From a virus (Duplodnaviria; Heunggongvirae; Uroviricota; Caudoviricetes), in the IMG/VR virus record IMGVR_UViG_2778261217_000004, positions 1 through 25,633 of that record: a stretch of 25,633 nt of DNA. The stretch is one strand, 5' to 3'. How positions within the stretch are numbered: the stretch's first letter is position 1; each line of letters begins with the position of its first letter. The notes below the pieces were generated by a model that searched no databases, was not told the origin of the DNA, and worked only from the letters and a program-made list of their open reading frames with translations. Both the position numbers and the translations under genes were made by a program. Below are positions 1-25,633 of this stretch, piece by piece.

Positions 1-1143
1 CTATGCTGTTTTGATATCTACGATAATCCAGTCTTTACCACGATCATCATTGTATCGGTCGGTCATTTTTCTGGATTTATGGCCTAACAACTTTTGCGTA
101 TCCAGACCCTGTTCCCGATATAACCGTTCTGAGAGAGATCGCTGCTCATGAAATGTGGGCGCAGTTCCTTGCTCCCATTTTATGCCACATTTTTCCCGGG
201 CCTTTTTAAAAGCCGTTGTCAGAGTATTTGCAGAAACCTGGTCTCCTCTGTTTGCTTGAGAGGTAGTGTGACGGTAATGGACCAGATATTTACTAACAAC
301 AGCATCCCTGCACTGAGATATAACTTCACGAAGGGTAATATTCAGAGCATCGCATTTCAGGTTAAGCGGAATAGCAAGTCTTGAACCGGTTTTTTCCTGA
401 GTAATGTGCAACATGTCGTCCCATATATCAGAGAATTTCAAATTGCAGATATCGCCTAAACGTTGTCCAGTAACAAGAGCAAGTAGCATCCCGCATTTTA
501 AATAGGGCTGCCGTCTGCTTACGCTGTCAAATATTGCCTGCCATTCGGGCAGTGATAATCTTTGGCGGTTTACTCGATTTCGCGGTTGTTTTGTTGCCTG
601 CGCTGGGTTAAATCCTGGCGGAACATGTCCTGCGTGTTGTGCTTCTTTGAAGACGTCGATCAACACCATTCTCACGACTTGCGCCATCCTGTTATGACCT
701 TCAGCCTTTACAGCATCAATTATTTCGGCAATATCAAGTGCGGTAATATCCTTGAGGTGTTGCATTCCACAATGCTCACGGAAAAGACGAATGGGTTTGC
801 CTTTTTGCCGATAGGAGTTGGGTCTTAGTTCATTATGTTGCAGCCTGTCCTCCTGGATAGAAATATATTTATCAAGCCATTCTGTCACCGTAATGTCTGA
901 GCGCCTGCCTTTCATTCTTTCCAGACGCTCATTGACGCTTAATATTTGTCTGGTACGTTGTTCAGCAATAATGGTATTTGCTTCAGTAGCAACTTGTTTT
1001 GCTTCATTCTCATCAGTTCCTAAGCTATGAAAACGACCGGATAGTGGATGTTTGTATTGCCAATATACCTTTCCGGTTCGCTTATCTAATTTGCAATATA
1101 AATTGGGTATAGAGATTTTGTGAGATCGGGGTCTAGCAGCCAT
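1..1143 (-). CDS. int: Phage integrase, tyrosine recombinase (lambda Int family)
   Basis: 380-aa ORF alignable along its length to lambda Int; C-terminal catalytic block PTFHEQRSLSERLY...LLGHKS...RY; ATG at 1141-1143 overlaps xis stop; stop codon at 1-3. Confidence 0.93.
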   Translation of the reverse strand: MAARPRSHKISIPNLYCKLDKRTGKVYWQYKHPLSGRFHSLGTDENEAKQVATEANTIIAEQRTRQILSVNERLERMKGRRSDITVTEWLDKYISIQEDRLQHNELRPNSYRQKGKPIRLFREHCGMQHLKDITALDIAEIIDAVKAEGHNRMAQVVRMVLIDVFKEAQHAGHVPPGFNPAQATKQPRNRVNRQRLSLPEWQAIFDSVSRRQPYLKCGMLLALVTGQRLGDICNLKFSDIWDDMLHITQEKTGSRLAIPLNLKCDALNITLREVISQCRDAVVSKYLVHYRHTTSQANRGDQVSANTLTTAFKKAREKCGIKWEQGTAPTFHEQRSLSERLYREQGLDTQKLLGHKSRKMTDRYNDDRGKDWIIVDIKTA

Positions 1144-7689: not shown

Positions 7690-8382
7690 CTACCCATGCT
7701 TTCTATATGTCTGCGGCATGCTCCCGATGACTTTCCCGAAGATGAACACGCGGTTCATCTCGTCTTTCTCGATCGGGTCCCACGGTGAGTAGCTCTTGTT
7801 ATCAGAGATAACCAGCAGCTTATCCTTCATCATTTGCAGGCGCTTTACATGGGCGGTGTCGTCATACAGAAACGCATAGATACCATCACCGTCGAAAGAT
7901 TTAACAGTGATATCAACGAACAGAAGATCACCTGGTTCGATCGTTCCTGACATGCTGTCACCGCGTACGTTAATGATGCGGATATTTTCTGCCTTCCTGC
8001 CATCGAACATGTGACGAGCATCGTCAAACGAGTACTCAACCGAGCGTAGAACTTCTACAAACTCACGGTTGATGACTCCCGGCCCGGCACTCACTTCTAT
8101 ATCAAGAACGTCAATCTTGAAGTATTTGGGATGGTTGGCAGTAGGCTTCCCTAATTGTTGACCGTCATTTCTCATCGGGCCTATGCCTGATGAGAGCCAC
8201 TCTGTTCGAACACCCAATGCATTAGCTATTTCAACAATTTTTGTTGAGCCGCGCGCGTTGCCGCTTGTCAGTCTCCAGATTGTGGGTTGAGCTACGCCAG
8301 ACGCCTTTGCAAGAGCGCCTTGAGACATTCCAGATTGTTCCATCGCTAGGTTTAAGCGATCAGCAAGAGTTTCTTTTTTCAT
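7690..8382 (-). CDS. cI: CI-type prophage repressor (HTH plus LexA-like S24 peptidase domain)
   Basis: N-terminal HTH (MSQGALAKASGVAQPTIWRL), C-terminal S24 motifs GDSM and VKRL; start taken as ATG 8380-8382, the open frame extends to TTG at 8418. Confidence 0.9.
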   Translation of the reverse strand: MKKETLADRLNLAMEQSGMSQGALAKASGVAQPTIWRLTSGNARGSTKIVEIANALGVRTEWLSSGIGPMRNDGQQLGKPTANHPKYFKIDVLDIEVSAGPGVINREFVEVLRSVEYSFDDARHMFDGRKAENIRIINVRGDSMSGTIEPGDLLFVDITVKSFDGDGIYAFLYDDTAHVKRLQMMKDKLLVISDNKSYSPWDPIEKDEMNRVFIFGKVIGSMPQTYRKHG

Positions 8383-8492
8383 AAGTTTTAATTTATACGC
8401 TTGCGTATTGATGGTCAAAACACGTTTTGCTATTGTTATGATTAATACGCATTGCTATTATTTATTCATTGCAATACCAATAGGAATTGATA
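8383..8492. promoter_or_regulatory. OR / PRM / PR divergent regulatory region
   Basis: Perfect palindrome ATACGCTTGCGTAT (8395-8408); ATTGCTAT repeats; rightward TTGTTA (8433-8438) - 17 nt - TATTAT (8456-8461). Confidence 0.6.
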
Positions 8493-8720
8493 ATGACAAA
8501 TCAAACCATTCAACTCGCAATCAGTATTACAGGTAGTCAAAAACGACTGGCAGATCTATGCGGTGTAGCCCAACCCACTGTTTGGCGTTGGCTACACGGT
8601 GGCGGAATTGATGCCCGCTATGTAATGAAAATTGTCTCAGCCACTGGTGGAAAGATTAAACCAGCAGATATTCGTCCCGACCTCGCACCATTGTTTAACG
8701 CGAGTAATTCTGCCGCCTAA
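8493..8720 (+). CDS. cro: Cro-like HTH regulator
   Basis: Small ORF divergent from cI; HTH QKRLADLCGVAQPTVWRW; AGGA RBS 7 nt before ATG 8493; track ORF begins at TTG 8487. Confidence 0.8.
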   Translation: MTNQTIQLAISITGSQKRLADLCGVAQPTVWRWLHGGGIDARYVMKIVSATGGKIKPADIRPDLAPLFNASNSAA

Positions 8721-8744
8721 ACTGCGGCGTTAACTGATAAGGCA

Positions 8745-9290
8745 ATGACTATGCAACCACTTACATACCAACAGACTAGCGGATTTAGCCCGACTGCGGT
8801 GATAAATCGTTCTCAAACAAAACAAGCTCCAGGCCACGAAAAAATCCGTGATGCCGTCCGCGCCTGGTCGGCTGCAGATAATCAGGATGTTGTTGCCGCA
8901 CTCATTGTGAATGAGTATCGGGAGCAGGGCGGCGGCACCATCGATTTCCCTGATGATGTCAGCCGTGCACGCCAGAAGCTGTTCCGCTTCCTCGATAACA
9001 AATTCGATTCTGAAAAATACCGAAATAACGTGCGTGAACTGACCCCGGCAATTCTGGCGGTACTACCGCTGGAATATCGCGGTTACCTGGTTGAGCAGGA
9101 TAGCTTTATGGCTAGGTTGGCTGAAATGGAAAAGGAACTCAGTGAGGCAAAACAGGCTGTCATTCTCAACGCACCACGCCACCAGAAACTGAAGGAGATG
9201 AGTGAAGGCATTGTGTCGATGTTTCGAGTGGACCCGGATCTGGCTGGTCCATTGATGGCGATGGTCACCACCATGCTGGGGGCAATATGA
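8745..9290 (+). CDS. YdaT-family protein in the cII position
   Basis: 181 aa; NEYREQGGG and LTPAILAVLPLEYR resemble Rac YdaT; directly after cro. Confidence 0.7.
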   Translation: MTMQPLTYQQTSGFSPTAVINRSQTKQAPGHEKIRDAVRAWSAADNQDVVAALIVNEYREQGGGTIDFPDDVSRARQKLFRFLDNKFDSEKYRNNVRELTPAILAVLPLEYRGYLVEQDSFMARLAEMEKELSEAKQAVILNAPRHQKLKEMSEGIVSMFRVDPDLAGPLMAMVTTMLGAI

Positions 9291-9376
9291 CAGGTTCAAA
9301 AATGGCGAAAGTCGGTCTGCGGGAACAGAACCGACTTTCAGGTGCAAATCGTAACACACTCATTGCGGGAGGAATT

Positions 9377-10306
9377 ATGGCAAACACTGCTGAGATATTC
9401 AATTTTCCAGTGCCGGATGCGGCACAAAAGGAGCCGCGCGTGGCAGATCTCGATGATGGTTATACGCGCATTGCAAATGAGTTGCTGGAAGCTGTGATGC
9501 TGGCCGGATTAACACAGCACCAGCTTCTGGTCTTCCTGGCTGTCATGCGCAAAACATATGGCTTTAATAAAAAACTGGATTGGGTGAGCAACGAGCAACT
9601 TTCCGAGTTGACCGGGATATTGCCGCACAAGTGTTCTGCTGCAAAAAGTGTTCTGGTAAAGCGTGGGATTTTTATTCAGAGCGGGCGGAATATCGGCATC
9701 AATAATGTGGTCAGTGAATGGTCAACATTACCCGAATCGGGTAAGAAAAATAAAGTTTACCTGAAAGAGGTAAATTTACCTGAATCAGGTAAGAAAAGTT
9801 TACCTAAATCAGGTAAAGGCGTTTACCCGAATCAGGTAAACACAAAAGACAAACTAACAAAAGACAATATAAAACCTTTATCGTCCGAGAATTCTGGCGA
9901 ATCCTCTGACCAGCCAGAAAACGATCTTCCTGTGGTGAAACCGGATGCTGCAATTCAGAGCGGCAGCAAGTGGGGGACAGCAGAAGACCTGACCGCCGCA
10001 GAGTGGATGTTTGACATGGTGAAGACCATCGCGCCATCAGCCAGAAAACCGAATTTTGCAGGGTGGGCTAACGATATCCGCCTGATGCGTGAACGTGATG
10101 GACGTAACCACCGCGACATGTGCGTGCTGTTCCGCTGGGCATGCCAGGACAACTTCTGGTCCGGTAACGTGCTGAGTCCGGCTAAACTCCGCGACAAGTG
10201 GACCCAGCTCGAAATCAACCGTAACAAGCAACAGGCTGGCGTGACAGCCAGAAAACCAAAACTCGACCTGACAAACACTGACTGGATTTACGGGGTGGAT
10301 TTATGA
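9377..10306 (+). CDS. O: Replication initiator O
   Basis: Homologous to lambda O (VADLDDGY..., LRKTYGWNK-like, EQVNTKDKLTKDNI); GGAGG RBS before ATG 9377; iterons inside the gene; open frame extends to 9287. Confidence 0.9.
   Translation: MANTAEIFNFPVPDAAQKEPRVADLDDGYTRIANELLEAVMLAGLTQHQLLVFLAVMRKTYGFNKKLDWVSNEQLSELTGILPHKCSAAKSVLVKRGIFIQSGRNIGINNVVSEWSTLPESGKKNKVYLKEVNLPESGKKSLPKSGKGVYPNQVNTKDKLTKDNIKPLSSENSGESSDQPENDLPVVKPDAAIQSGSKWGTAEDLTAAEWMFDMVKTIAPSARKPNFAGWANDIRLMRERDGRNHRDMCVLFRWACQDNFWSGNVLSPAKLRDKWTQLEINRNKQQAGVTARKPKLDLTNTDWIYGVDL
9729..9840. repeat. Replication origin iterons (five copies) within O
   Basis: Five ~18-19 bp repeats of TTACCTGAATCAGGTAA-type sequence at 9729-9746, 9756-9774, 9776-9794, 9800-9818, 9822-9840, followed by an A-rich stretch 9841-9875. 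Confidence 0.85.
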
Positions 10307-11004
10307 AAAACATCGCCGCACAGATGGTTAACTTTGACCGTGAGCAGATGCGTCGGATCGCCAACAACATGCCGGAACAGTACGACGAAAAGCCGCAGGT
10401 ACAGCAGGTAGCGCAGATCATCAACGGTGTGTTCAGCCAGTTACTGGCAACTTTCCCGGCGAGCCTGGCTAACCGTGACCAGAATGAACTGAACGAAATC
10501 CGCCGCCAGTGGGTTCTGGCTTTCCGGGAAAACGGGATCACCACAATGGAACAGGTTAACGCAGGAATGCGCGTAGCCCGTCGGCAGAATCGACCATTCC
10601 TGCCATCACCCGGGCAGTTTGTCGCCTGGTGCCGGGAAGAAGCATCCGTTAACGCCGGGCTGCCAAACGTCAGCGAGCTGGTTGATATGGTTTACGAGTA
10701 TTGCCGGAAGCGCGGGCTGTATCCGGATGCAGAGTCTTATCCGTGGAAATCAAACGCGCACTACTGGCTGGTTACCAACCTGTATCAGAACATGCGGGCC
10801 AATGCGCTGACTGACGCGGAATTACGGCGCAAGGCTGCCGATGAACTGACCTGTATGACAGCGCGAATTAACCGTGGTGAGACGATACCTGAACCAGTAA
10901 AACAACTTCCTGTTATGGGCGGTAGACCTCTAAATCGTGCACAGGCTCTGGCGAAGATCGCAGAAATTAAAGCTAAGTTCGGACTGAAAGGAGCAAGTGT
11001 ATGA
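10303..11004 (+). CDS. P: Replication protein P (helicase loader)
   Basis: 233 aa, near-identical to lambda P; ATGA overlap with O stop. Confidence 0.97.
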   Translation: MKNIAAQMVNFDREQMRRIANNMPEQYDEKPQVQQVAQIINGVFSQLLATFPASLANRDQNELNEIRRQWVLAFRENGITTMEQVNAGMRVARRQNRPFLPSPGQFVAWCREEASVNAGLPNVSELVDMVYEYCRKRGLYPDAESYPWKSNAHYWLVTNLYQNMRANALTDAELRRKAADELTCMTARINRGETIPEPVKQLPVMGGRPLNRAQALAKIAEIKAKFGLKGASV

Positions 11005-11303
11005 CGGGCAAAGAGGCAATTATTCATTACCTGGGGACTCATAAGAAATTCTGTGCGCAGGACGTTGCCGCGGTAACAGGCGCAACGGTAACCAGCATAA
11101 ATCAGGCTGCGGCTAAAATGGCGCGGGCAGGAATCCTGGTCGTTGATGGTAAGGTCTGGCGAACGGTGTATTATCGGTTCGCTACCAGAGAAGAACGGGA
11201 AGGAAAGGTGAGCACGAATTTGATTTTTAAGGAGTGTCGCCAGAGTGCCGCGATGAAACGGGTATTGAGGGTATATAAAAGAACATCAATGGGTACACAA
11301 TGA
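11001..11303 (+). CDS. ren: Ren protein
   Basis: MTGKEAIIHYLGTH...VTSINQAAAKMARAG... matches lambda Ren; overlaps P stop. Confidence 0.9.
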   Translation: MTGKEAIIHYLGTHKKFCAQDVAAVTGATVTSINQAAAKMARAGILVVDGKVWRTVYYRFATREEREGKVSTNLIFKECRQSAAMKRVLRVYKRTSMGTQ

Positions 11304-11370
11304 TGAAACAGGTGAGTTGAGTTCAAACTGTAGTACAATTCTCTCCAGTTTGAACAGGAAAGAATATGCT

Positions 11371-11703
11371 ATGAACCCTTATATTTATCTTGGTGGTGCA
11401 ATACTTGCAGAGGTCATTGGTACAACCTTAATGAAGTTTTCAGAAGGTTTTACACGATTATGGCCATCTGTTGGTACAATTATTTGTTATTGTGCATCAT
11501 TCTGGTTATTAGCTCAGACGCTGGCTTATATTCCTACAGGGATTGCTTATGCTATCTGGTCAGGAGTCGGTATTGTCCTGATTAGTTTACTGTCATGGGG
11601 ATTTTTCGGCCAACGGCTGGACCTGCCAGCCATTATAGGCATGATGTTGATTTGTGCCGGTGTGTTGGTTATTAATTTATTGTCACGAAGCACACCACAT
11701 TAA
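11371..11703 (+). CDS. emrE: SMR-family multidrug efflux transporter EmrE
   Basis: 110 aa from MNPYIYLGGAILAEVIGTTLMKFSEGF..., matching E. coli EmrE; track ORF starts further upstream at 11317. Confidence 0.93.
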   Translation: MNPYIYLGGAILAEVIGTTLMKFSEGFTRLWPSVGTIICYCASFWLLAQTLAYIPTGIAYAIWSGVGIVLISLLSWGFFGQRLDLPAIIGMMLICAGVLVINLLSRSTPH

Positions 11704-11733
11704 AATAATTTGTTTCTAAACGACTAAAATATG

Positions 11734-11770
11734 GAGGCTCTTATATTTATATGAGCCTCGTTTTATGCTT
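11734..11770 (+). terminator. Intrinsic terminator after emrE
   Basis: Hairpin GAGGCTC-(12 nt loop)-GAGCCTC followed by GTTTTATGCTTTTTG. Confidence 0.6.
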
Positions 11771-11957
11771 TTTGTTAATGTCTTTATTTTTTATGTATTC
11801 TTTTGTGCTTTCAAGATTATGGCGTAAGAAAATTGCAATACGATTATTGTTGTATATTCAAGATAATGTGACCTTAATTGTCTTTTTAAATAAAAATTAA
11901 ACAAAAATTATATCCCACCACTAAGGTTTATAAAAGCATACGTTAGCAGGTGTCACC

Positions 11958-13484
11958 ATGAAAAAAGCCATAGCATATATGCGATTTTCATCACCAGGTC
12001 AGATGTCTGGTGACTCATTAAACCGACAGAGAAGACTTATTGCTGAATGGTTAAAGGTAAATAGTGATTATTATCTTGATACCATAACATATGAAGATTT
12101 AGGATTAAGTGCATTCAAAGGAAAGCATGCACAATCAGGAGCTTTTTCGGAATTTTTAGATGCTATAGAGCATGGTTATATATTGCCAGGAACTACATTG
12201 TTAGTTGAAAGTCTGGACAGACTTTCAAGAGAAAAAGTCGGTGAAGCGATTGAACGTCTGAAATTGATTTTGAATCACGGTATTGATGTTATAACTCTTT
12301 GCGACAATACAGTCTATAATATTGACTCTTTGAATGAGCCATATTCATTAATAAAAGCCATACTTATAGCACAAAGGGCAAATGAAGAAAGCGAGATAAA
12401 GTCAAGTCGGGTTAAATTATCATGGAAGAAAAAACGGCAGGATGCACTGGAATCAGGTACGATTATGACGGCGTCTTGTCCGAGATGGCTCTCCTTAGAT
12501 GACAAAAGAACGGCTTTTGTTCCAGACCCCGACAGGGTGAAAACTATTGAGCTAATTTTTAAACTCAGGATGGAAAGGCGCTCATTGAATGCAATAGCCA
12601 AGTATTTAAATGATCATGCTGTAAAGAATTTCTCAGGAAAAGAAAGTGCATGGGGACCTTCTGTAATTGAAAAATTATTAGCGAATAAAGCTCTGATAGG
12701 TATATGCGTACCTTCATATCGTGCAAGAGGGAAAGGGATAAGTGAAATCGCTGGCTATTATCCCAGAGTCATATCAGATGATTTGTTTTACGCTGTACAG
12801 GAAATTCGGTTGGCACCTTTTGGTATTAGCAATAGTAGCAAGAATCCTATGCTAATAAATCTACTTCGAACAGTTATGAAGTGTGAGGCTTGTGGTAATA
12901 CCATGATTGTTCATGCGGTATCTGGAAGTTTGCATGGCTATTATGTTTGTCCAATGAGAAGATTACATCGATGTGACAGGCCATCAATAAAAAGAGATTT
13001 GGTTGATTATAATATCATTAATGAATTGCTTTTTAATTGTAGCAAAATTCAACCAGTTGAAAACAAGAAAGATGCTAATGAAACTTTAGAGTTAAAAATT
13101 ATTGAGCTTCAGATGAAAATTAATAATTTAATCGTTGCATTGTCTGTCGCGCCTGAAGTTACCGCTATAGCAGAGAAAATAAGACTATTAGATAAGGAAT
13201 TACGAAGGGCTTCGGTATCATTGAAAACTTTGAAGAGTAAAGGTGTAAATTCATTCAGTGATTTTTATGCTATTGACTTAACCAGTAAAAATGGACGAGA
13301 GTTATGCCGTACACTTGCCTATAAAACATTCGAAAAAATCATAATTAATACGGATAATAAAACCTGTGATATCTATTTTATGAATGGCATTGTTTTTAAA
13401 CACTATCCTTTAATGAAAGTAATATCCGCCCAGCAGGCGATAAGTGCTCTCAAATATATGGTTGATGGTGAGGTTTATTTTTGA
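11958..13484 (+). CDS. ybcK: Serine recombinase (resolvase/invertase-type catalytic domain, large C-terminal extension)
   Basis: 508 aa; N-terminal AIAYMRFSSPGQ catalytic-serine region; AT-rich gene; AGGTG RBS. Confidence 0.8.
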   Translation: MKKAIAYMRFSSPGQMSGDSLNRQRRLIAEWLKVNSDYYLDTITYEDLGLSAFKGKHAQSGAFSEFLDAIEHGYILPGTTLLVESLDRLSREKVGEAIERLKLILNHGIDVITLCDNTVYNIDSLNEPYSLIKAILIAQRANEESEIKSSRVKLSWKKKRQDALESGTIMTASCPRWLSLDDKRTAFVPDPDRVKTIELIFKLRMERRSLNAIAKYLNDHAVKNFSGKESAWGPSVIEKLLANKALIGICVPSYRARGKGISEIAGYYPRVISDDLFYAVQEIRLAPFGISNSSKNPMLINLLRTVMKCEACGNTMIVHAVSGSLHGYYVCPMRRLHRCDRPSIKRDLVDYNIINELLFNCSKIQPVENKKDANETLELKIIELQMKINNLIVALSVAPEVTAIAEKIRLLDKELRRASVSLKTLKSKGVNSFSDFYAIDLTSKNGRELCRTLAYKTFEKIIINTDNKTCDIYFMNGIVFKHYPLMKVISAQQAISALKYMVDGEVYF

Positions 13485-14005
13485 GTAATAATCACTTTTT
13501 CAACCGTGCTATGGTATGAAAGTAAAGTAACTACTATGATATTAACTATCTTGAACGAAGCGCCCTGAGCTATGGTTTTGCTATAGGGACTGCCAATGGG
13601 GGCTGGCATTCTCGCTCCAGTAGTTCAATAATACTCAATCACAAAACAATTCACTGATAACAAACTTTGCACACTTGCTTGGTTATGGCGAGCAAGTGAT
13701 GTGATGTTAACCGTCTGCCAGAACATTACTTCACTTCTTCAAGTGGCGGAACATTGCGAATCCGGTAACTTTGCTTCCATCGAGCAAGAATATCCCTAGG
13801 TACTCAACAGGGTGCAGGTCAACGTGAATCGGTCATGACACGACACCGATTTTGCGGAATGTTTCGAAGGTAAACTATTGGATGCCTCTATCAGCAACAA
13901 CACAGCAAGATCAGAAGTGATGGACGACACGTTCAGAGCAATGATTCAGCGCGTCGAGGATGCGAAAGGAAAACTGTAACCACAGAGAAAGAGCTTGTTT
14001 CATGT

Positions 14006-14278
14006 GTGAAGGAGCGCAGTAACAGGACATTTGAAGCCCGTTACTACGTTCAAAACAGCAATCTACAAACTGTGCTCGAACAGGGAATGGTGATAAGCAG
14101 AGACGCGTTAGAAAACTATGAAGCTGGAAATCTGATATCCGACATCCTGCCACAGCAATCACCTGAAGATGCGGTACTAAAAATGGTTGACTGTCTCAAG
14201 CGCCTTGGAGCTGCTACCGAAGCTAATTTTAAAAACAATAAGGATGAAAATGTGGATCCCGAAAACTACGTTGTGTAA
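14006..14278 (+). CDS. Hypothetical small protein (possibly a gene remnant)
   Basis: 90-codon frame with a GTG start and no convincing RBS; overlaps an antisense ORF. Confidence 0.25.
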   Translation: MKERSNRTFEARYYVQNSNLQTVLEQGMVISRDALENYEAGNLISDILPQQSPEDAVLKMVDCLKRLGAATEANFKNNKDENVDPENYVV

Positions 14279-14422
14279 CGTAAGGTTAAATGAGGCTATT
14301 AAATGTTGTGATATCAATAGATATATATAGAGTAATTTTCGTTATAATTAACTGTTCTGGGATATCGGACTATGATGGTCTCCAGAATTGAGAATATTTA
14401 TCAACTTAATGATAGAGGGACT

Positions 14423-14689
14423 ATGAAAATTTACAGCCTTGGTGAAGAGACAATCAATAGCATTATTGAAGAAGATAAAAAATTGTCTGAGCAGGTGCAG
14501 ATTATTGAAGATTATATCGTTATCAATGTTGCTTATGAATACAACATCCCGCTTAGTACATGTTCAACACATCAGCAAATTTTGAACTGGGTGTGGCACT
14601 TAACTGAAAAAACATGGATGACACAAAATGTTACTCGTCGCTTCATTGAAGTAGCTTGTGGATATCACAAGCTAGACTATCGCCAATGA
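14423..14689 (+). CDS. Hypothetical protein (88 aa)
   Basis: ATG at 14423 preceded by GAGGG RBS; track ORF starts at 14372; no family recognised. Confidence 0.45.
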   Translation: MKIYSLGEETINSIIEEDKKLSEQVQIIEDYIVINVAYEYNIPLSTCSTHQQILNWVWHLTEKTWMTQNVTRRFIEVACGYHKLDYRQ

Positions 14690-14879
14690 TATTCAATTTT
14701 TGATTTTTTAGTATCAACCTTCCATAATAATGTCACCGGAGCTTGAACAACTCCGGTGACTTCTGCGCATTTAAGGGGACTTAAATGCGACCACAATCTG
14801 AACTCCTTACCTTGTCACAGATGCAGAAATGCACCTGCGATGTCTTGCATCCAGCGTTTGATCTCTGCGGAGGTGAAGC

Positions 14880-15335
14880 GTGAACCTCCCACAAGATGGC
14901 ATCAAATTACATCGCGGTAACTTCACCGCTGTCGGTCAGCAGATCCAGACTTATCTGGAAGACGGCAAATGCTTTCGCATGGTGCTTAAACCGTGGCGCG
15001 AGAGACGCAGTCTTTCCCAGAATGCACTCAGCCACATGTGGTACAGCGAAATCAGCGAGTACCTCATCAGCAGGGGGAAAACGTTCGCTACTGCAGTATG
15101 GGTAAAAGATGCACTCAAACACACATACCTCGGTTATGAAACCAAGGACTTGGTTGATGTCGTAACCGGCGAAATCACTACTATCCAGTCGTTACGCCAT
15201 ACCTCCGATCTTGATACCGGAGAGATGTATGTCTTCCTGTGTAAGGTTGAAGCCTGGGCGATGAATATTGGCTGCCACCTGACTATTCCGCAGAGCTGCG
15301 AGTTCCAGCTGCTGCGCGACAAGCAGGAGGCGTAA
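14880..15335 (+). CDS. ybcN: NinB-family recombination protein
   Basis: 151 aa; [12 protein letters not shown] resembles the NinB core; GGAGG RBS before GTG start; position in nin region. Confidence 0.8.
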
Positions 15336-15505
15336 TGGCTACACCGCTTATTCGTGTCATGAACGGGCACATTTACAGAGTACCAAATCGTCGTAAGCGT
15401 AAACCTGAGCTGAAGCCTTCCGAAATACCAACACTGCTCGGATATACCGCCAGCCTGGTTGATAAAAAATGGTTGCGACTGGCAGCAAGGAGGAATCATG
15501 GCTGA
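15335..15505 (+). CDS. ninE: NinE-family small protein
   Basis: 56-aa ORF (not in ORF track) [56 protein letters not shown]; TAATG overlap with ninB stop. Confidence 0.65.
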   Translation: MATPLIRVMNGHIYRVPNRRKRKPELKPSEIPTLLGYTASLVDKKWLRLAARRNHG

Positions 15506-15788
15506 TTTGAGAAAAGCAGCGCGTGGTCGGGAATGCCAGGTAAGAATCATTGGCGTATGTAATGGCAACCCTGAAACGTCTGTACTGGCACATATCCGGC
15601 TGGCTGGATTGTGCGGCACCGGTATTAAACCGCCAGACCTTATTGCCACCATTGCCTGTTCTGCCTGTCACGACGAAATCGACCGCCGCACGCATTTTGT
15701 CGATGCTGAGTACGCAAAAGAATGCGCGCTGGAAGGTATGGCGAGAACGCAGGTTATCTGGCTGAAAGAGGGGGTAATCAAGGCGTGA
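15498..15788 (+). CDS. ybcO: YbcO-family phage nuclease (DUF1364-like)
   Basis: 96 aa from [17 protein letters not shown]...; AGGAGG RBS; overlaps ninE stop. Confidence 0.85.
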
Positions 15789-16147
15789 ATACTTACCACA
15801 TCACACTACCCTGGCCGCCGAGCAATAACCGCTACTACCGGCATAATCGCGGGCGCACGCACATCAGCGCAGAAGGGCAGGCATACCGTGATAACGTCGC
15901 CCGAATCATTAAAGGCTCAATGCTGGATATCGGCCTGGCTATTCCTGTGAAAATCCGCATAGAGTGCCACATGCCGGATCGCCGTCGCCGTGACCTGGAT
16001 AATCTGCAAAAAGCCGCTTTTGACGCACTCACTAAAGCAGGTTTCTGGCTTGATGATGAGCTGGTCGTTGATTACCGCGTTGTGAAGATGCCTGTTACCA
16101 AAGGTGGGAAGCTGGAACTGACCATCACTGAACTGGGAGATGAATGA
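15785..16147 (+). CDS. rusA: Holliday junction resolvase RusA
   Basis: 120 aa from GTG ([26 protein letters not shown]...), matching RusA; GTGA overlap with ybcO stop. Confidence 0.93.
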
Positions 16148-16284
16148 TGTTTGAGTCTTATATGGCAGAACGTCTTCGCCGCCGCTGGGTGCGCCTGCGC
16201 TTATATCGTTTCCCCGGTTCTGTTTTGACCGATTACCGAATACTGAAGAATTACGCCAAAACCCTGACAGGAGCAGGAGTATGA
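16144..16284 (+). CDS. ylcG: YlcG-family small protein
   Basis: 46-aa ORF (not in track) [46 protein letters not shown]; ATGA overlap with rusA stop. Confidence 0.7.
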
Positions 16285-16369
16285 AGTCAGAGATAACAAT
16301 CAACTAATACTGTTTTGTTGATTTTTGCTTGTAATTGGCGTTCTGGTCTGATTTTTGTGGAGTAAGTTG

Positions 16370-16753
16370 ATGCGTGATATTCAGATGGTTCTTGAGCGTT
16401 GGGGAGCGTGGGCGGCTAATAATCATGAAGATGTGACCTGGTCGTCCATTGCCGCCGGTTTTAAGGGATTAATTCCTTCAAAAGTAAAATCTCGCCCGCA
16501 ATGTTGTGACGATGACGCGATGATCATTTGCGGGTGCATGGCCCGTCTGAAAAAGAACAACAGCGATTTGCACGATTTATTAGTAGATTATTATGTAGTC
16601 GGTATGACATTCATGTCACTGGCAGGTAAGCATTGCTGCTCTGATGGTTATATCGGGAAAAGGTTACAGAAGGCTGAGGGTATAATTGAAGGGATGTTAA
16701 TGGCATTAGATATCCGGTTAGAGATGGATGTCGTTGTTAATAACTCTAATTAA
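16370..16753 (+). CDS. quuD: Late-gene antiterminator Q (phage 82 type)
   Basis: 127 aa from [21 protein letters not shown]...; GGAG RBS 7 nt upstream; position after the nin region. Confidence 0.9.
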
Positions 16754-16942
16754 TATGCCAATTGTTTACTAAAAGTTATTAAAAACGGGGCGTTGCAACG
16801 CCCCCAAAAATAAAGGGTAATATATAACAGAAGGTTTATATAGTTAGAAGCAAGGTTGTGCTCCTAAAGGAAGTGGCTTGAGGGAGCCACTTATATGTTG
16901 GGGAGGCAAAGCCTCCCGCAACATATCTTTTTCGTAATCAGA
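16754..16942. promoter_or_regulatory. Late promoter / terminator region between Q and the convergent porin gene
   Basis: Three hairpins: GGGGCGTTGCAACGCCCC (16787-16804, T-rich on minus strand), GTGGCTTGAGGGAGCCAC (16872-16889), GGGAGGCAAAGCCTCCC (16901-16917). Confidence 0.5.
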
Positions 16943-18040
16943 TTAGAACTGGTAAACCAGACCTACAGCAACGATGTCATCAGTGCTTACACCGAGTGCT
17001 TTAGTGAAGTCATTTTTGTCAAGCAGGTTGATTTTGTAATCAACGAAAGTAGACATATTTTTGTTGAAGTAATAGGTTGCACCTACATCAACATATTTGA
17101 CTAAGTCCTGATCGCCCCATACTCCAAGATCCTTACCTTTAGATTGCAGGTAAGCAACGGACGGACGCAGACCGAAATCGAACTGATATTGTGCAACAGC
17201 TTCGAAGTTTTGAGCTTTATTAGCAACGAAGTGATCAGCAAATACAGTCATATTCTGGGTTTCAGAATAGGTAGTGGCCAGGTAAATGTTGTTAGCGTCA
17301 TATTTCAGACCTGCGGCCCAAACTTCTGCATTTTTACCGGAAGCAAATACTTCAGGAAGAACTTTCCCTGCATTAACTTGAGTGTCGGTACGATCAGATT
17401 TCGCATAAGTTGCACCGATACCGAATCCTTCGTATTCATAGGTAGCAGAGAAACCGAAGCCATCACCGTTACCTTCAGTGTAGTTATCGAAATCGCTACG
17501 ATCGTTTTTGCCTTGGTACTGAGCAGCAAAGTTCAGACCATCAACCAGACCAAAGAAGTCGTTGTTACGATAGGTTGCAACACCAGTGGTGCGACCAGTC
17601 ATGAACACATCTGTTTGAGTCCAGGTATCGCCACCGAATTCTGGCAGAACGTCAGTCCACGCACCGATGTCGTATGCTACACCGTAGTTACGGCCGTAAT
17701 CGATTGAGCCGTAGTCACCGAATTTCAGGCCTGCAAATGCAAGACGGGTTTTGTCTTTGGAGGAACCTTGAGATTCAGCGCGGTTGCCTTTGAATTCATA
17801 TTCCCACTGACCGAAACCAGTCAGCTGATCGTTGATTTGGGTTTCGCCTTTGAAGCCCAGACGAACATAAGTAGTATCACCATCATCTGCATCGTTAGAG
17901 GAAAAGTAGTGCTTGGCATTAACTTTCCCGTACAGATCCAGCTTGTTACTGTCTTTATTATAAATTTCAGCTGCCTGAGCAGACATCGCCATCAGTACTG
18001 ATGCAGCTACAGCAGAAATTGCCACTGTTAATTTTTTCAT
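16943..18040 (-). CDS. nmpC: Outer-membrane porin (OmpC/NmpC family), intact
   Basis: 365 aa with signal peptide [23 protein letters not shown] and C-terminal VGLVYQF; uninterrupted reading frame. Confidence 0.93.
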
Positions 18041-18628
18041 CGTGAGCCCTTTTTTTTGAACTATTATTAAAAAATGATGTCACTGCGAGATAAATATTCA
18101 TCTAATCAATGTGATTATTTCAAGATGTAAGTTTTAGTTTCTCATTTAATTTGTGAAGTAGATCTCTATTTTTATCTTAACTTTTTCTATCAAAACCTAT
18201 TTATGGCTCTTATTTGAACAAAAATAAACCTATTAGCTAATTTATATTAATGGCTGTTATTTATGTGGGTTCTATAATTTGACGGTTTAATTTAAACCAA
18301 CTAAAAATAACGCAGGAAATTATTTATTGGTTATTTGTTGAGGTTTTCTTATGTATTTGTGGTGGTGTTTTGAACACTCGGTAGCATTCTCATAAATATC
18401 ATTCAGTGGTTTACGTACGTAAAAAATTGGTTATGCTGTTAAGAGTGGTTACTTCGTCACACAGCTTAAACCCGCCGTCGAGCTGGTTTTTCCATTTTTT
18501 GAGTCTCGATATTAGCTGATAACTCAATACCTAAGTTATTCACTGACTCCGAGTCTGTTACGTTTCTGCTTTTTTGCGATACGTTGTATTCCCTCAATTT
18601 ACACCCGCTTTGTCTGCGAGGTGGGGTT

Positions 18629-18844
18629 ATGAAATCCATGGATAAGTTAACAACGGGTGTCGCCTATGGCACCTCAGCAGGTAGTGCCGGTTACTGGTTT
18701 TTACAGCTGCTCGATAAAGTCACGCCCTCACAGTGGGCAGCAATAGGTGTGCTGGGTAGCCTGGTATTTGGCCTGCTGACGTACCTGACAAACCTTTATT
18801 TCAAGATTAAAGAAGATAAGCGCAAGGCTGCGAGAGGTGAATAA
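18629..18844 (+). CDS. essD: Class II holin (phage 21 S-like), dual start MKSMDK
   Basis: 71 aa [26 protein letters not shown]...; GAGGTGGGG RBS. Confidence 0.9.
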
Positions 18845-19224
18845 TGCCTCCATCATTACGAAAAGCCGTTGCTGCTGCTATTGGTGGCGGAGCAATTGCT
18901 ATAGCATCAGTGTTAATCACTGGCCCAAGTGGTAACGATGGTCTGGAAGGTGTCAGCTACATACCATACAAAGATATTGTTGGTGTATGGACTGTATGTC
19001 ACGGGCATACAGGAAAAGACATCATGCTCGGTAAAACGTATACCCACTCACTGTCCGGCACTGCTGCAAGCGCAGGTGCACACGCACATACTGTCGGTAT
19101 TGGTGCTCATACGCACTCGGTTGCGATTGGCTCACATGGACACACCATCACCGTTAACGCTGCTGGTAACGCGGAAAACACCGTCAAAAACATCGCATTT
19201 AACTATATTGTGAGGCTTGCATAA
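18844..19224 (+). pseudogene. rrrD: In-frame fusion: 5' 67 codons of SAR-endolysin joined to the 3' end of a tail-fibre gene
   Basis: Residues 1-67 match the phage 21/DLP12 SAR endolysin N-terminus up to GKTYT; residues 68-126 ([37 protein letters not shown]...[11 protein letters not shown]) are a tail-fibre C-terminus; junction near 19044/19045. Confidence 0.8.
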
Positions 19225-19808
19225 TGGCATTCAGAATGAGTGAACAACCACGGACCATAAAAATTTATAATCTGCTGGCCGGAACTAATGAATTTATTGG
19301 TGAAGGTGACGCATATATTCCGCCTCATACAGGTCTGCCAGCAAACAGTACCGATATTGCACCACCAGATATTCCGGCTGGCTTTGTGGCTGTTTTCAAC
19401 AGTGATGAGGCATCGTGGCATCTCGTTGAAGACCATCGGGGTAAAACCGTCTATGACGTGGCTTCCGGCGACGCGTTATTTATTTCTGAACTCGGCTCAT
19501 TACCGGAAAATGTCACCTGGTTATCCCCGGAAGGGGAGTTTCAGAAGTGGAACGGCACAACCTGGGTGAAAGATGCAGAAGCAGAAAAACTGTTCCGGAT
19601 CCGGGAGGCGGAAGAAACAAAAAACAGCCTGATGCGTGTAGCCAGTGAGCATATTGCGCCACTTCAGGATGCTGCAGATCTGGAAATCGCAACGGAGGAA
19701 GAAACCTCGTTGCTTGAAGCCTGGAAGAAGTATCGGGTGTTGCTGAATCGTGTTGATACATCAACTGCACCTGATATTGAGTGGCCTGCAATCCCTGTTA
19801 TGGAATAA
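19224..19808 (+). CDS. tfa: Tail fibre assembly protein (Tfa family)
   Basis: 194 aa [31 protein letters not shown]..., typical lambdoid Tfa; TAATG overlap with upstream stop. Confidence 0.9.
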
Positions 19809-20165
19809 TAGTTTTGTGATATGCCGCAGAAACGTTATATGCAATAACGTGCTGCGGTTGGCTGATGTACTTTCGAGAGTGTATTGAATAATTTCCAACC
19901 GTCATTAATTTTATTTATTTTTTGTATGAGAGGATTTGAACCTCCGAGCCTCGACACCTTATGACAACGCGATATTGCCTTGATGATCGCCATGTGCCAA
20001 AATAACCAATTGATAAATAAGTTTATTTTAATTGGTTGGAAGCAAGTCAGGTCAAATTCAGCATTCCGCTCTCTGTATCGGATAGTTAAATTTTTCTATA
20101 ACTGATAGTAATATGTTAAAACTCACACAGATAAATTATCATTGCTCAACAAGTATAATGGAGTT

Positions 20166-22124
20166 CCCGTGGATACAGCAGAACATGATGGCAAGTTTGC
20201 TTGGGCTAGTTTTTATGAGGCTTTTGCCAACGCGTTACTGACTTGGCGAAATCGTAGAGATGAATTAGTCAAAGGTATTCATCTAATTGCCTCGGGTGTG
20301 GAAGGAATGTCCCATCTGCAGGACAAATCTATTATGGGAGAGATCTTTCCCTTAAAAGACATTTGTCCGTTTACTACTATGGGCTTGTTCAATCGTAACT
20401 TGACCGACAGCAATCGCAAAATTATTGCTGCCAAGCTAGCGAATTTGTTGGGCGTGAACGAACCGATTCCAGACTCCTTTGCCGGAATCCCTCTGTTGAA
20501 TAACCAAAAATCTTGGTTCTTTGGTTATGAAAAGTCACGCGACCCTAATGACATTGAATGCTTGTGGGAAATGTTCTCACAGGCAATGACCTTTGCGGAT
20601 AACCAGAATACTAACTCTGCAGACTTCACTGCCGCATATGACATCGCTTCTACAGTAATGAATGTCGGTTGGAATCTCACCATGGGGTTGTACTGGACCC
20701 GTCCTTGGTTCTACCCCACTTTAGATAGCCAGTCGCAGTATTACATTCAGACAGTGTTAAACATTAAGATCATTAAAAACGGGGCAAAAGGTCGCTGTAG
20801 TGGACAAAGTTACCTGAGTCTTATGCGGGCGCTGAACGAGGTCTTTACCCAACCAAACTATCCGGTTCATTCTTTCCCAGAACTTTCCTTATCAGCGTGG
20901 AATACAGATCTTAGCCAGTCTAAAGATGAAGTGGCAAATAGAACGTGGAAAGCCTCTTTACTGAATAAAATTAAGGCGTTATGCCTGAAAAAAAATGGCC
21001 CTTATTTCACTGCTTCGGAGTTGGAAGAAAACTACTTGGACGTATTCAAGGTAGAGCATCCTGAGAGCAAAACTGTTACAAGCTCAATCTACTTTTATCT
21101 ACAGAAACTATGCAATGATGATGAGTTAAAGTCCCTCGAGTCCGGAAATTATGAATACCTGAATTTTGAGAAAAACGAATCCCAGACGATAACTGAGGAA
21201 ACTGTCGAAGAGAGTGCGCTGTTGCCAAAACTCACCCACGTTCCTTATGACATCAGTCATCTGGTGCAGGATGGCTGTTTCTTGGAAGAGGCTAAGATCC
21301 AACTCACACTTCAGCGCCTGATCGACAAGAAAAACCTGATATTACAAGGACCACCAGGAACTGGAAAAACTTGGTTAGCGCGACGTCTGGCGTACTGCTT
21401 GATGGGAGAAAAAGCACCTGAGCGTATTAGCGCGGTGCAATTTCACCCGAACCTCTCTTACGAAGACTTTATTCGCGGCTGGCGTCCAGGTAAAGAAGGG
21501 CAATTGACGCTAATTGATGGACCTTTTGTAAATGCAATCAAAACTGCAGTCAATAATCCTACCTCGAAATATGTGGTGATAATTGAAGAGATTAATCGTG
21601 GCAATCCGGCGCAAATCTTCGGTGAAACACTCACATTGATGGAAGCAGATAAACGCACGCCGACTGAGGCATTATCTCTTTCCTATCCTAAAAATGCTGA
21701 TGAAAAAATATACATTCCTGAGAATCTATATATCATCGGTACGATGAATATTGCAGACCGCTCACTCGCACTACTTGACCTAGCGCTGCGCCGTCGTTTC
21801 GCGTTTATCGATCTAAAGCCAGCTTTTAATGACGCGTGGAGAAACTGGGTAAATTATAATTACGCAATTGATTTTGACATGTTAGCATTCATCAAATCTC
21901 GACTGACGGTATTAAACGATATGCTGGCAAAAGATGTTACCTTAGGACCACAGTTTTGTATCGGTCACAGCTATGTCACCCCAGCTATCGGCCAAAAAAT
22001 CAACGATGCCCAGGCTTGGTATGAACAAGTCGTTGATACAGAGATCTGCCCTTTGCTCGCCGAATATTGGTTCGATGCTCCAAATAAAGTCGATGAAGCC
22101 AGAAAAGTGTTATTAGCAAAATGA
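20166..22124 (+). CDS. mcrB: McrB-like AAA+ GTPase with a long uncharacterised N-terminal domain
   Basis: C-terminal Walker A GPPGTGKT, Walker B VVIIEEINRGN, McrB signature MNIADRS and RRRF; first ~390 residues not recognisable; start taken as GTG 20166 (GGAG RBS), open frame begins at TTG 20142. Confidence 0.8.
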   Translation, partial: PVDTAEHDGKFAWASFYEAFANALLTWRNRRDELVKGIHLIASGVEGMSHLQDKSIMGEIFPLKDICPFTTMGLFNRNLTDSNRKIIAAKLANLLGVNEPIPDSFAGIPLLNNQKSWFFGYEKSRDPNDIECLWEMFSQAMTFADNQNTNSADFTAAYDIASTVMNVGWNLTMGLYWTRPWFYPTLDSQSQYYIQTVLNIKIIKNGAKGRCSGQSYLSLMRALNEVFTQPNYPVHSFPELSLSAWNTDLSQSKDEVANRTWKASLLNKIKALCLKKNGPYFTASELEENYLDVFKVEHPESKTVTSSIYFYLQKLCNDDELKSLESGNYEYLNFEKNESQTITEETVEESALLPKLTHVPYDISHLVQDGCFLEEAKIQLTLQRLIDKKNLILQGPPGTGKTWLARRLAYCLMGEKAPERISAVQFHPNLSYEDFIRGWRPGKEGQLTLIDGPFVNAIKTAVNNPTSKYVVIIEEINRGNPAQIFGETLTLMEADKRTPTEALSLSYPKNADEKIYIPENLYIIGTMNIADRSLALLDLALRRRFAFIDLKPAFNDAWRNWVNYNYAIDFDMLAFIKSRLTVLNDMLAKDVTLGPQFCIGHSYVTPAIGQKINDAQAWYEQVVDTEICPLLAEYWFDAPNKVDEARKVLLAK

Positions 22125-23242
22125 CGACAATAACCGGGAGTGAGCAACATACAGCATCACGTATTCCCATGCGAAATATCTGGATGCTGATGCTGTACGC
22201 TTCAGATCTGTTTCGCCAGTTAGGGCGCAATCAGATCGCAGTAGAAGATAACCCAGCAGAAATCCCCGACCTGGTGGCGACAATCCTCCTTCATGAGATT
22301 ACGCTGCGCCGACGTCGCAATTTAAATATGGGATACCAAACTTGTCATGCGGCCCTGAACCGGGTGAGAGGGCGCATTGACATACTGTATACTGCCAGTC
22401 ATCAACTGCTGGAACGGGGACAGGTTGCCTGCCATTTTCAAGACATAACCCTCAACACCCCCCGAAATCGCTATGTTCGCTGTGCGTTAGAACGTCTGGC
22501 CTCAATCATAGTGAAACCGTCTTTGGCGGCAGATTGCCATTTTATGGCAATATCACTTCGCCGTGAGGGGATAAATGGAGGATATCCTGCCCCCCACGAA
22601 TTACCCTCAGTGTGGCGTTTTGGACGCCATGATGCCGCAGATAAACCGATGGTCGATGCCGCACGATTAGCTTTTGAACTGCTGATGCCGACCGAAGATC
22701 AAGGCCAATATCTTTTACCTGCGCCCTCAAATAACCTTTACTGGATGAGAAGACTATTTGAAAAAGGTATCGCTGGCTTATATCGTGTACACCTTGCCAA
22801 AACAACTTGGCAGGTCTCTGCAGGGAAAGAGCTGAAATGGGCGTTGAGCGATCAAAGTGCAGGTAGTGCAGAGATTTTCCCGACAATGAAGTCAGACATT
22901 ATTCTGGAACACAAGACTGCCCAGCGGCGTATTATTATCGATACCAAATTTAATTCGATTCTGACAAAGGGTTGGCATCGGGAGCAATCACTACGTAATG
23001 GCTATATTTATCAGCTATATACCTACCTTAGAACACAGGAGAACAAGACGGATCCGCTTTCGCTCAATGCCGCTGGTCTTCTACTTCATCCAGCTGTTGG
23101 CTATATGCTTAATGAGTATGTTGTCACTCAGGGACATAAGATCCATTTTGCTACAGTAGATATGACGGTAGATGCTAAAGCAATTAAAAAACAATTGCTG
23201 GCAATAGCCCATGATTGTGCAGGAGTCGCGGTTGATGACTAA
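22121..23242 (+). CDS. mcrC: McrC-like endonuclease subunit (PD-(D/E)xK)
   Basis: 373 aa; ATGA overlap with the McrB-like gene; nuclease-like block DIILEHK...IIIDTKF. Confidence 0.8.
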   Translation: MTTITGSEQHTASRIPMRNIWMLMLYASDLFRQLGRNQIAVEDNPAEIPDLVATILLHEITLRRRRNLNMGYQTCHAALNRVRGRIDILYTASHQLLERGQVACHFQDITLNTPRNRYVRCALERLASIIVKPSLAADCHFMAISLRREGINGGYPAPHELPSVWRFGRHDAADKPMVDAARLAFELLMPTEDQGQYLLPAPSNNLYWMRRLFEKGIAGLYRVHLAKTTWQVSAGKELKWALSDQSAGSAEIFPTMKSDIILEHKTAQRRIIIDTKFNSILTKGWHREQSLRNGYIYQLYTYLRTQENKTDPLSLNAAGLLLHPAVGYMLNEYVVTQGHKIHFATVDMTVDAKAIKKQLLAIAHDCAGVAVDD

Positions 23243-23954
23243 CCATCCTATAAGGCACTGGCTGTAATATAATCAATAGTTTCAATTAAGTAGCTGTTAT
23301 CCGTGCTTAGTCATCATATGACGCACCACGGTCTAATTTTCCTGCTCATACATTGATATATCCTTGTCGTGCCCGGAAAGTCGCAGTCCACTATGAGGTA
23401 TACCGATTGCCAGCACCAAAAGCTTCTTTGTGATTATTATATCGGGGAATGCCTATTTTTTTAGTGACAATATCAGATAGCAATTAATAAGCGGTGCCGG
23501 TAATGGATGTTATGTTTAATGTATAGACACAGCCATCATAAACTAAACGTCTGTTGTTCGCTCATAACCGACATTTATCTCAGTTATGGAAGATAATTAT
23601 GTATGCAGATAATGGGGCAGACAGTCGTGGAGTAAACAAGGTTTTGCACTGCTTGGCGGCATCGTTATCTTATTTTTAATTATGTGCCTCTTAACATAAG
23701 TTGGGACAAAACAGAGACACATAAGGTCTCACAAAGGTCTGCAAGGCCTCATATGTATTGAGATGTTAATAAAATGTAGGCTTGTAATTTGGATATAAAT
23801 GGTAGAGAAAACCTTTCCCCAAAATAAAAACGAACGTCAATGAAATCAAACGGTTGAATAAAGTTTATTTTGGCTAATAAAAAGACAATAAAATAATTTT
23901 TATCATTAAATATCAATGGCTTGAATTCATGGTTTTTATATACTGTTACGCCAT

Positions 23955-24107
23955 ATGGGCTGGACTGAAGCCGCAGACCTGATTGTTAAAGGTATGGAAG
24001 GCGCAATCAACGCCAAGACTGTAACCTATGACTTCGAACGTCTGATGGAAGGCGCTAAACTGCTGAAATGTTCAGAATTTGGTGATGCGATCATCAAGAA
24101 CATGTAA
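23955..24107 (+). pseudogene. icd: 3' fragment of isocitrate dehydrogenase gene (icd remnant at the prophage junction)
   Basis: Frame encodes ...[49 protein letters not shown], the Icd C-terminus; upstream frame is closed at 23922-23924. Confidence 0.88.
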
Positions 24108-24130
24108 TCACTACATGTGTTTAATATTGC

Positions 24131-24165
24131 AACGGGCGTATAACACGCCCGTTGTTTTATTTATG
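24131..24165 (+). terminator. icd intrinsic terminator
   Basis: Hairpin AACGGGCGT-(5 nt)-ACGCCCGTT followed by GTTTTATTTAT. Confidence 0.75.
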
Positions 24166-24209
24166 TAGGTATTATTAATAGCATATCGAGCATATTTATA
24201 TAAAACCCT

Positions 24210-24533
24210 TTACTTGAGCCCATATGGGCATATTTTTATAATGCAACTATTATGCAAACATTTATTTGTTATTTTGCTTTCTCCTGGAGGACACTCTTGA
24301 CTGCTTTTGAGTAGACTCCATAAATCCTTGTTGAATGGTGCGATGTTATAAATAGTAATAGGATATTCTTTATCTTTAAGGATAATTCCAGATTTAACCG
24401 GTGTAAATATACTGCCAGGAGGGAGAAATATAGTAGATTGATACCAGATGATCATTTTCATATTACCCCATATGGCTGAAAAAGATATGCCGCATGAAGG
24501 TTGAATTATCGTGTCAATTACTATCCACTTCAT
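24210..24533 (-). CDS. iraM: Anti-adaptor protein IraM
   Basis: 107 aa [36 protein letters not shown]..., matching E. coli IraM; AT-rich. Confidence 0.9.
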
Positions 24534-25228
24534 TTGTTATGTCTTATCCCACGGTATTTAATATAGTTCATTTGGATGTTCATTTCTTTATTTTGCATAT
24601 GAGTATATTACCCCTTCAAAAAATAAATTAATTAAAACGATTACTTATATAAAACAAAATTTAAAGCAAGGAATCTCAATGGATGTTAAACAAAATGAGA
24701 TTTAGTGAAAACAATAAATTATTCACTTCGTTTTAGATTTGTTTAGCTATAATGTTATACATTCAAATGACTGAACATCCTGTAATTAAAACATAGCCTT
24801 TATGCTACTTTGTGCCAATTTGCTAAACATTATGGTTGCCTTTTTATATAACGATAATAATGAATATAAGCATGACATGAGAATAAGGTTTCAATTTTTG
24901 AGTTATATAGGAAAGGTTTAACCTGTTCCTGGCTAAAATACATATAACTGGATGATGACTAAACCAAAACACATGTGCGTTAAGTATTGAAACGGGCGTA
25001 TGGCACACCCGTTGTTTTTATAAATATATTAACCGTTATAAAATAACGTATAGAAAGTCAAGTGATCACATTTCAAATATCAATTTGATAGTATTGGCAT
25101 GGTGATTATTTATGGGTAGCAATAAAAGGACAGTATTTATCATCCATAGGGATAGTCTCTGTACTTTTATTCCCATTATGCTAATGCCTTACTGAATTAT
25201 GAAGCATTTCTTAAGCATCCAACTTTAG

Positions 25229-25633
25229 CTAGATTAATGGTTTATTATTTTCTACATCTTCAATATATAAAAGCGTATTATCAATGGCGTAGTAACTGCG
25301 TTTGTTATGATTAACATCAGTAACCCACCGGAAAACGCCCGCGCCTGCTAGTGTTGAACAGTATTCCCGAAATGTAGATTTTCCGCAAATATGAAGCAAT
25401 GCGGCCTCTTTTATTTTAGCAGGGTTCTTGGTCGTACTAACTTTTAACAGGTTCCTGGTTCCTCTTAATAACAAAACCGTGTCATCGTGAGTAATAATTC
25501 TGATGTTATCCGTAGCCAGATAATAAATGTAATGTGCAATACGGTGATGTTTTAATTCTGAATAAAACCAGGAGAAGTTTTGCTCTTTTCTCACTTGCTC
25601 AAACATCTTTTGAAAAACAACGACCTGATCCAT
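25229..25633 (-). CDS. ycgX: YcgX-family protein (DUF1398)
   Basis: 134-aa ORF whose ATG is the last three bases of the window (25631-25633). Confidence 0.8.
   Translation of the reverse strand: MDQVVVFQKMFEQVRKEQNFSWFYSELKHHRIAHYIYYLATDNIRIITHDDTVLLLRGTRNLLKVSTTKNPAKIKEAALLHICGKSTFREYCSTLAGAGVFRWVTDVNHNKRSYYAIDNTLLYIEDVENNKPLI

Follow-up and report, generated by a model that had tools for sequence, protein, structure and literature searches.

A deletion of 24,367 bp, very probably lost in one event, joins the endolysin gene rrrD to the tail-fibre gene stf in a lambdoid prophage at the Escherichia coli icd site

The window analysed here is a stretch of 25,633 nucleotides carrying a lambdoid prophage, in which we identified a chimeric ORF of 126 aa (18844..19224, + strand) that joins residues 1-67 of the SAR endolysin RrrD/R21 in frame to the final 59 residues of the tail-fibre protein Stf. 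As the reference long form we used the prophage at the icd site of E. coli PapRG-06-3 (NZ_CP048604.1, locus L004), and compared with it the window lacks one contiguous segment of 24,367 bp. The best explanation, which we consider very probably correct, is that a phage 21/DLP12-like lambdoid prophage in icd lost these 24,367 bp in one event while it resided in the chromosome. The original prediction, made from the window alone, had proposed a single deletion of 15-20 kb with its ends in the endolysin and tail-fibre genes; the comparison with PapRG-06-3 bore out the single deletion and both end points, while the size proved to be 24.4 kb.

The 5′ part of the chimera consists of codons 1-67 of rrrD (18844..19044, +), carries the SAR domain and E35/D44/T50, and is collinear with the PapRG-06-3 prophage to position 19044. 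Residues 1-67 (MPPSL...GKTYT) showed 100% identity to the phage 21 lysozyme (PDB 3HDE) and to RrrD (4ZPU), and the alignment with 3HDE stopped at residue 67-69. The Gly/Ala-rich, weakly hydrophobic N-terminal SAR segment is present, as seen in the translation and from the identity to 3HDE and 4ZPU, and the catalytic E35-x8-D44-x5-T50 could be read off the translation of the ORF; E-x8-D/C-x5-T is the motif used for recognising this lysozyme class (PMC9239132). The complete lysozyme domain of ~165 aa is absent from the chimera: Pfam Phage_lysozyme (PF00959) matched at profile positions 3-38 of 125 only, and the 98 C-terminal residues (68-165) are missing, with tail-fibre sequence in their place.

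The 3′ part is the end of stf with its stop codon (19040..19224, +), encoding the end of the first His box (H-T-H), three more HxH boxes and the C-terminal strand. Residues 68-126, with their HAH, HTH and HGH boxes, matched the C-terminus of the T4 gp37 tip (2XGF residues 173-242, E 1.5e-21), and the C-terminal 264 residues of the PapRG-06-3 Stf matched the same structure with an E-value of 1e-89. At the DNA level, the stretch encoding residues 68-126 and the final 185 bp of the PapRG-06-3 stf are identical. These 185 bp are what is left of a 3,360-bp gene, and the N-terminal tail-attachment domain, the shaft repeats and the receptor-binding head of Stf are all absent; ~200 upstream residues of the gp37-type tip are gone, and the last 59 are kept. 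The switch between rrrD and stf sequence is no chance resemblance. The reading of the ORF behind the holin as the start of a SAR endolysin that switches after GKTYT to a tail-fibre C-terminus was thus upheld by the 3HDE/4ZPU identity and the 2XGF match, and the 2XGF match and the DNA identity to stf ruled out a true variant of an endolysin carrying a His-rich tail.

The chimera keeps its original neighbours on both sides. Upstream lies an intact phage 21-type pinholin gene, essD (18629..18844, +; 71 aa; Pfam Phage_holin_2_1, 2e-35), which is identical to essD of PapRG-06-3. Downstream lies an intact gene for the tail fibre assembly chaperone, tfa (19224..19808, +; 194 aa; Pfam Caudo_TAP, 4e-44), whose ATG overlaps the TAA of the chimera (TAATG) and which differs from its PapRG-06-3 counterpart by two synonymous substitutions; its direct succession to the chimera had been correctly predicted. 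An Rfam match to IS009 was obtained in the 3′ half of tfa (19567-19765, +; 217.7 bits against a gathering score of 117), and the match to this family, a candidate sRNA, seems to overlap tfa coding sequence that is conserved. Further upstream, the late antiterminator gene Q (quuD; 16370..16753, +; Pfam Phage_antitermQ, 1e-53) is intact, and an OmpC/NmpC-like porin gene (16943..18040, −; Pfam Porin_1, 2e-156) is carried as cargo between Q and the lysis cassette. In agreement with the original prediction, the ORFs and the comparison with the intact relative revealed no Rz/Rz1, terminase, portal, capsid or tail protein genes from Q to tfa.

We then aligned the window to the PapRG-06-3 prophage by BLAST. 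Window 1-19044 aligned with 6 mismatches and window 19040-23829 with 2 mismatches, both without gaps, giving 8 mismatches in 23.8 kb and a long form that is 99.97% identical. Among complete E. coli genomes with the long form, window 1-12000 was 100% and 19040-25633 was 99.9% identical, and the window arms lie ~43.4 kb apart in these genomes versus 19 kb in the window; in a second long-form genome, SCU-152, the left arm is 100% identical to that of the window. The PapRG-06-3 prophage is full-length and lambda-like and sits between icd and the iraM/ycgX region. Its genes run from int, xis, the Red functions, repressor/cro, O, P, ren, emrE, ybcK and the nin region, through rusA, quuD, porin, essD, rrrD, rzpD, iss, nohD, the large terminase subunit and W, to the portal, protease, decoration and capsid proteins, FI, FII and the tail genes through J, and end with lom, the 3,360-bp stf, tfa and an AAA ATPase/McrC pair. 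The segment lost from the window, annotated as a full lambda-like set of lysis-end, packaging, head and tail genes, comprises, at its lysis and packaging end, the 3′ part of rrrD, rzpD, iss/bor, nohD, the terminase large subunit and W, and, in its virion part, the portal, protease, decoration, capsid, FI and FII genes, the tail set to J, lom and ~95% of stf.

All 35 retained CDS in the window are without internal stops and together show two amino-acid changes relative to PapRG-06-3. Because all 35 retained genes are intact, the deletion is, on comparison of the two sequences, recent and the sole disabling lesion found relative to the long form. We also observed that the W (head-tail joining) gene of PapRG-06-3 is annotated as frameshifted (L004 24761-24966). 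Its translation diverges from lambda W in the last ~10 residues, and the PapRG-06-3 prophage may itself be defective or its record may contain a sequencing error.

An alignment with intact relatives, which the original prediction had proposed as a check, placed the deletion junction at 19040..19044 (+), where one copy of ATACC is kept. Base-by-base inspection of the PapRG-06-3 long form showed ATACC at both break points, that is, 5 bp of microhomology. The left break point lies at rrrD nucleotide ~201, after codon 67, and the right break point lies 180 bp upstream of the stf stop codon, with the stf reading frame kept across the join (...GGT AAA ACG TAT ACC / CAC TCA CTG...). All isolated phages and intact prophages in the comparison cease to resemble the left arm at 19044 and begin to resemble the right arm at 19040; likewise, isolated phages (Turner, PhiR26_1, 434 and others) share the Q-porin-S-R block with the window, and their similarity ends at 19044. 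In 200,000 junctions simulated between the same two regions, microhomology of at least 5 bp arose in 0.6% (P = 0.006).

Deletion scars at short homologies, with one copy of the repeat left, are established in E. coli. As read from the junction alone, the mechanism would be RecA-independent illegitimate recombination at short homology, and the repair route may have been either template switching or the joining of double-strand break ends through microhomology. Site-specific recombination of the Pin/Gin type was disfavoured, since no Pin/Gin-type invertase gene was found beside tfa within the window; by eye, the junction also does not look like the sequences of invertase crossover sites. The deletion probably arose in a lysogen, with the prophage resident in the chromosome, because a product without cos and without any virion gene would not be deliverable as a phage particle.

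The position of the prophage in the chromosome could be read from both of its ends. The integrase gene (1..1143, −) forms the left end, and its neighbour in the intact relative is icd. The right end (attR) is marked by a duplicate of the icd 3′ end (23949..24160, +; 92.9% match to the icd end of PapRG-06-3), and in strain 730V1 a partial isocitrate dehydrogenase is annotated at the place matching window 23949-24160. The prophage is thus integrated between att-site duplicates and carries its own integrase. A tRNA-like fragment at ~19925-19975 was considered as a secondary att site and rejected: neither ARAGORN nor Rfam, the latter at both its gathering threshold and a permissive one, found anything there. 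The prophage is flanked by host genes, namely the icd′ remnant, iraM, ycgX, bluR, bluF and ymgA/B, and not by relocated structural genes, which speaks for a deletion and not for the rearrangement that had been named as the alternative.

Several likely cargo genes were seen along the prophage. Between tfa and the icd′ remnant at attR, an McrB-like AAA_5 ATPase (651-660 aa) and an McrC-family protein are encoded at 20169-23242; PADLOC gave only weak restriction-enzyme-like matches for the ATPase and none for the McrC-family protein. This defence-type cargo lies beside attR, in the place that mcrA takes in e14. Likely cargo or defence genes also occur in the early region (2168-3232, −, and 5912-7560, −), and include a DGQHR/DndB-like protein (PADLOC DndB, 4e-37) and an ImmA/IrrE-type metallopeptidase (weak CapP/RmrA matches) paired with a DUF4411 protein.

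We further studied whether comparable fusions occur in other E. coli prophages. In TB06053 (L001 6390-6410), rrrD nucleotide 60 is joined to the same stf site as in the window (the ATA of CATACC). In Tig228 (L002 6390-6410), rrrD is broken at nucleotide 60, as in TB06053, and joined 18 bp further into stf, while in PSS-07 essD is joined to stf 60 bp further upstream. The TB06053, Tig228 and window prophages occupy different chromosomal sites (the argU/DLP12 region, the bio/lambda site and icd), and the arms of TB06053 and Tig228 differ from the window by 1-5%. This divergence argues, at the level of sequence, against recent common descent of the TB06053/Tig228 and window fusions. Chance alone is not a comfortable explanation for the stf break point common to TB06053 and the window (rough estimate ~1%). 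On rrrD::stf fusions, our literature search yielded no earlier account; the papers obtained dealt in general terms with cryptic prophages and with SAR endolysins.

Two readings of the shared break point were considered as alternatives to each other: either the first His box of stf (GCA CAT ACC CAC, window 19040) is a preferred break point for illegitimate recombination, or rrrD::stf junctions are unstable and progressively trimmed. We regard this pair of readings as unlikely. If it were true, unrelated E. coli prophages would repeatedly suffer deletions from the lysis cassette to the fibre tip at identical nucleotides. This would represent a directed route of decay by which a single step disarms both lysis and virion production and leaves tfa and the downstream defence cargo untouched.

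The same three prophages bear on the possibility that the window acquired its fusion by homologous recombination from a defective prophage that already carried the rrrD::stf junction, with TB06053-like fusions as later, trimmed descendants. A nested series from the window to TB06053 by a 139-bp TATA-flanked loss, and on to Tig228 by an 18-bp loss, can be drawn, and the different chromosomal sites are what would be expected if modules move by recombination. However, the window shows zero mismatches to PapRG-06-3 for more than 700 bp to the left and more than 300 bp to the right of the junction, TB06053 and Tig228 differ from it by 1-5% in the stretch around the junction, and neither the 5,426 complete E. 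coli genomes nor the protein collection contained a donor with the window junction. We therefore consider such an acquisition very unlikely, and a deletion within the resident prophage remains the preferred reading.

A survey of disrupted RrrD proteins placed the left break point in a wider context. Among the relatives P0002-P0120, the protein search of E. coli assemblies listed ~75 distinct truncated or fused RrrD forms, with gpW, the lom-stf intergenic terminator, stf, J and Lom as fusion partners; by member counts, intact RrrD forms still dominate over disrupted ones. Read-throughs beginning WICPYISRHLL... or GFAPIFPD..., which look like IS2 ends, were found at 10 or more rrrD codons (57, 62, 66, 71, 72, 74, 89, 97, 133 and others). 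Three different fusions break after GKTYT: besides that of the window, P0053/P0057 continue into the lom-stf terminator and P0066 into gpW. A hot spot at rrrD codon 67 was rejected, since ~75 disrupted forms are spread over ~88 codons and a rough Poisson estimate gives ~0.2 for two or more others sharing a codon. We also observed a remnant with NleG effector genes in Logan SRR12769737_166 (L008 1527-3130), which carries two successive scars: one joins rrrD codon 67 to gpW codon 2-3, and the other is an ORF of 402 aa in which a portal, a tail-tip and a GpJ C-terminal domain are brought together.

The junction itself was found in a single draft assembly. The exact 126-aa fusion protein occurred once in the public collections searched, on contig NMDM01000007.1 (182,853 bp) of GCA_002541405.1, and formed a one-member cluster among 5.8 billion protein clusters. 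A 20.4-kb stretch of this contig (L005) is 100% identical to window 18000-20200. The junction was present in 0 of the 5,426 complete E. coli genomes. When a single genome of each species was scanned for an exact 36-mer, no match was obtained, and in fifty other genomes the right arm is continuous with a tail-fibre gene. Since the sole source is a draft, the contig might wrongly join two parts of a full-length prophage at the junction CTCGGTAAAACGTATACCCACTCACTGTCC. However, the sequence shared at the join is 5 bp, far shorter than the k-mer of any assembler, each arm is unique, the two are collinear with a single prophage, and comparable real deletions occur in finished genomes, which makes an assembly artefact highly improbable, slightly more so than acquisition from a donor.

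Even less credit can be given to the chimera as a selected functional protein rather than a neutral scar, such as a membrane-tethered SAR peptide that shows a fibre-tip fragment and works with Tfa, since the in-frame join, the retained ribosome-coupled place behind the holin and the intact downstream tfa are set against a one-in-three prior for an in-frame join, a singleton protein without spread, the absence of two thirds of the lysozyme fold and of the head domain and outgoing strand of the gp37-type needle, and a related fusion in TB06053 that is out of frame. The chimera, which has a third of the lysozyme fold and, of the fibre needle, the returning strand only, is most likely an inert by-product of the deletion and should not form an active muramidase fold. 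We suggest that the 126-aa ORF be annotated as an rrrD/stf fusion pseudogene, neither as a lysozyme nor as a hypothetical protein.

Genes that are essential for virion formation and present in close relatives are absent from the window prophage within the 24,367 bp from terminase to stf. The prophage would keep the functions of int/xis, Red recombination, repressor/cro, O/P replication, Q, the pinholin and the cargo genes, and would make no endolysin, spanin, heads or tails. After induction, excision, replication, Q-dependent expression and pinholin firing are predicted to be still possible, and the cell would be killed by pinholin depolarisation, without lysis and without progeny. We suggest that the window prophage be annotated as defective. 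With one lesion, a defined microhomology and the long form in sister strains, it captures the first step of prophage domestication with unusual clarity, and the deleted and long-form prophages constitute a natural pair for measuring the effects of losing lysis and morphogenesis genes on host fitness and induction lethality.

Deletion-driven decay of prophages is treated as standard in reviews (PMC6379469), and the window deletion is an ordinary, well-known kind of prophage decay and no new kind of system. At the level of mechanism, it resembles short-homology illegitimate recombination or alternative end joining in E. coli, in which a large deletion has ends that share a few bases and one copy is left; the difference is that here the pathway is read from the scar only. 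At the level of protein, residues 1-67 are identical to phage 21 R21/RrrD (PDB 3HDE, 3HDF, 4ZPU), whereas residues 68-165 are replaced in the chimera. In alignment, the final 59 residues are almost identical to the end of the T4 gp37 tip and the lambdoid Stf C-terminus (2XGF), HxH boxes included, whereas the chimera has the C-terminal strand only and has lost the collar, the outgoing needle strand and the receptor-binding head.

At the level of the whole element, the window prophage resembles the cryptic prophages DLP12, Qin, Rac and e14 of E. coli K-12, which are likewise integrated lambdoid genomes that lost their morphogenesis genes by internal deletion and kept int, regulatory, nin-region, Q, lysis-cassette and tail-fibre-end/tfa genes together with cargo. 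The DLP12 gene set emrE-ybcK-ybcN-ninE-ybcO-rusA-ylcG-quuD-porin-essD-rrrD is also found in the left arm of the window, and the icd integration site is common to e14, phage 21 and the window prophage. Strain 730V1 (E. coli O19:H7, L009 5550-7007) has a prophage at the same icd site with a different deletion, from the 5′ part of nohD to the last 699 bp of stf; its essD-rrrD-rzpD-bor genes are intact, DLP12-type ybcV/ybcW/ylcI are present, and it represents this prophage family in another state of decay, reached independently. Unlike in the K-12 cryptic prophages, the break points joining rrrD codon 67 to stf are specific to the window strain, and in contrast to the many lesions accumulated by the K-12 elements, the window prophage carries a single, very recent lesion and has a long form that is 99.97% identical to it.
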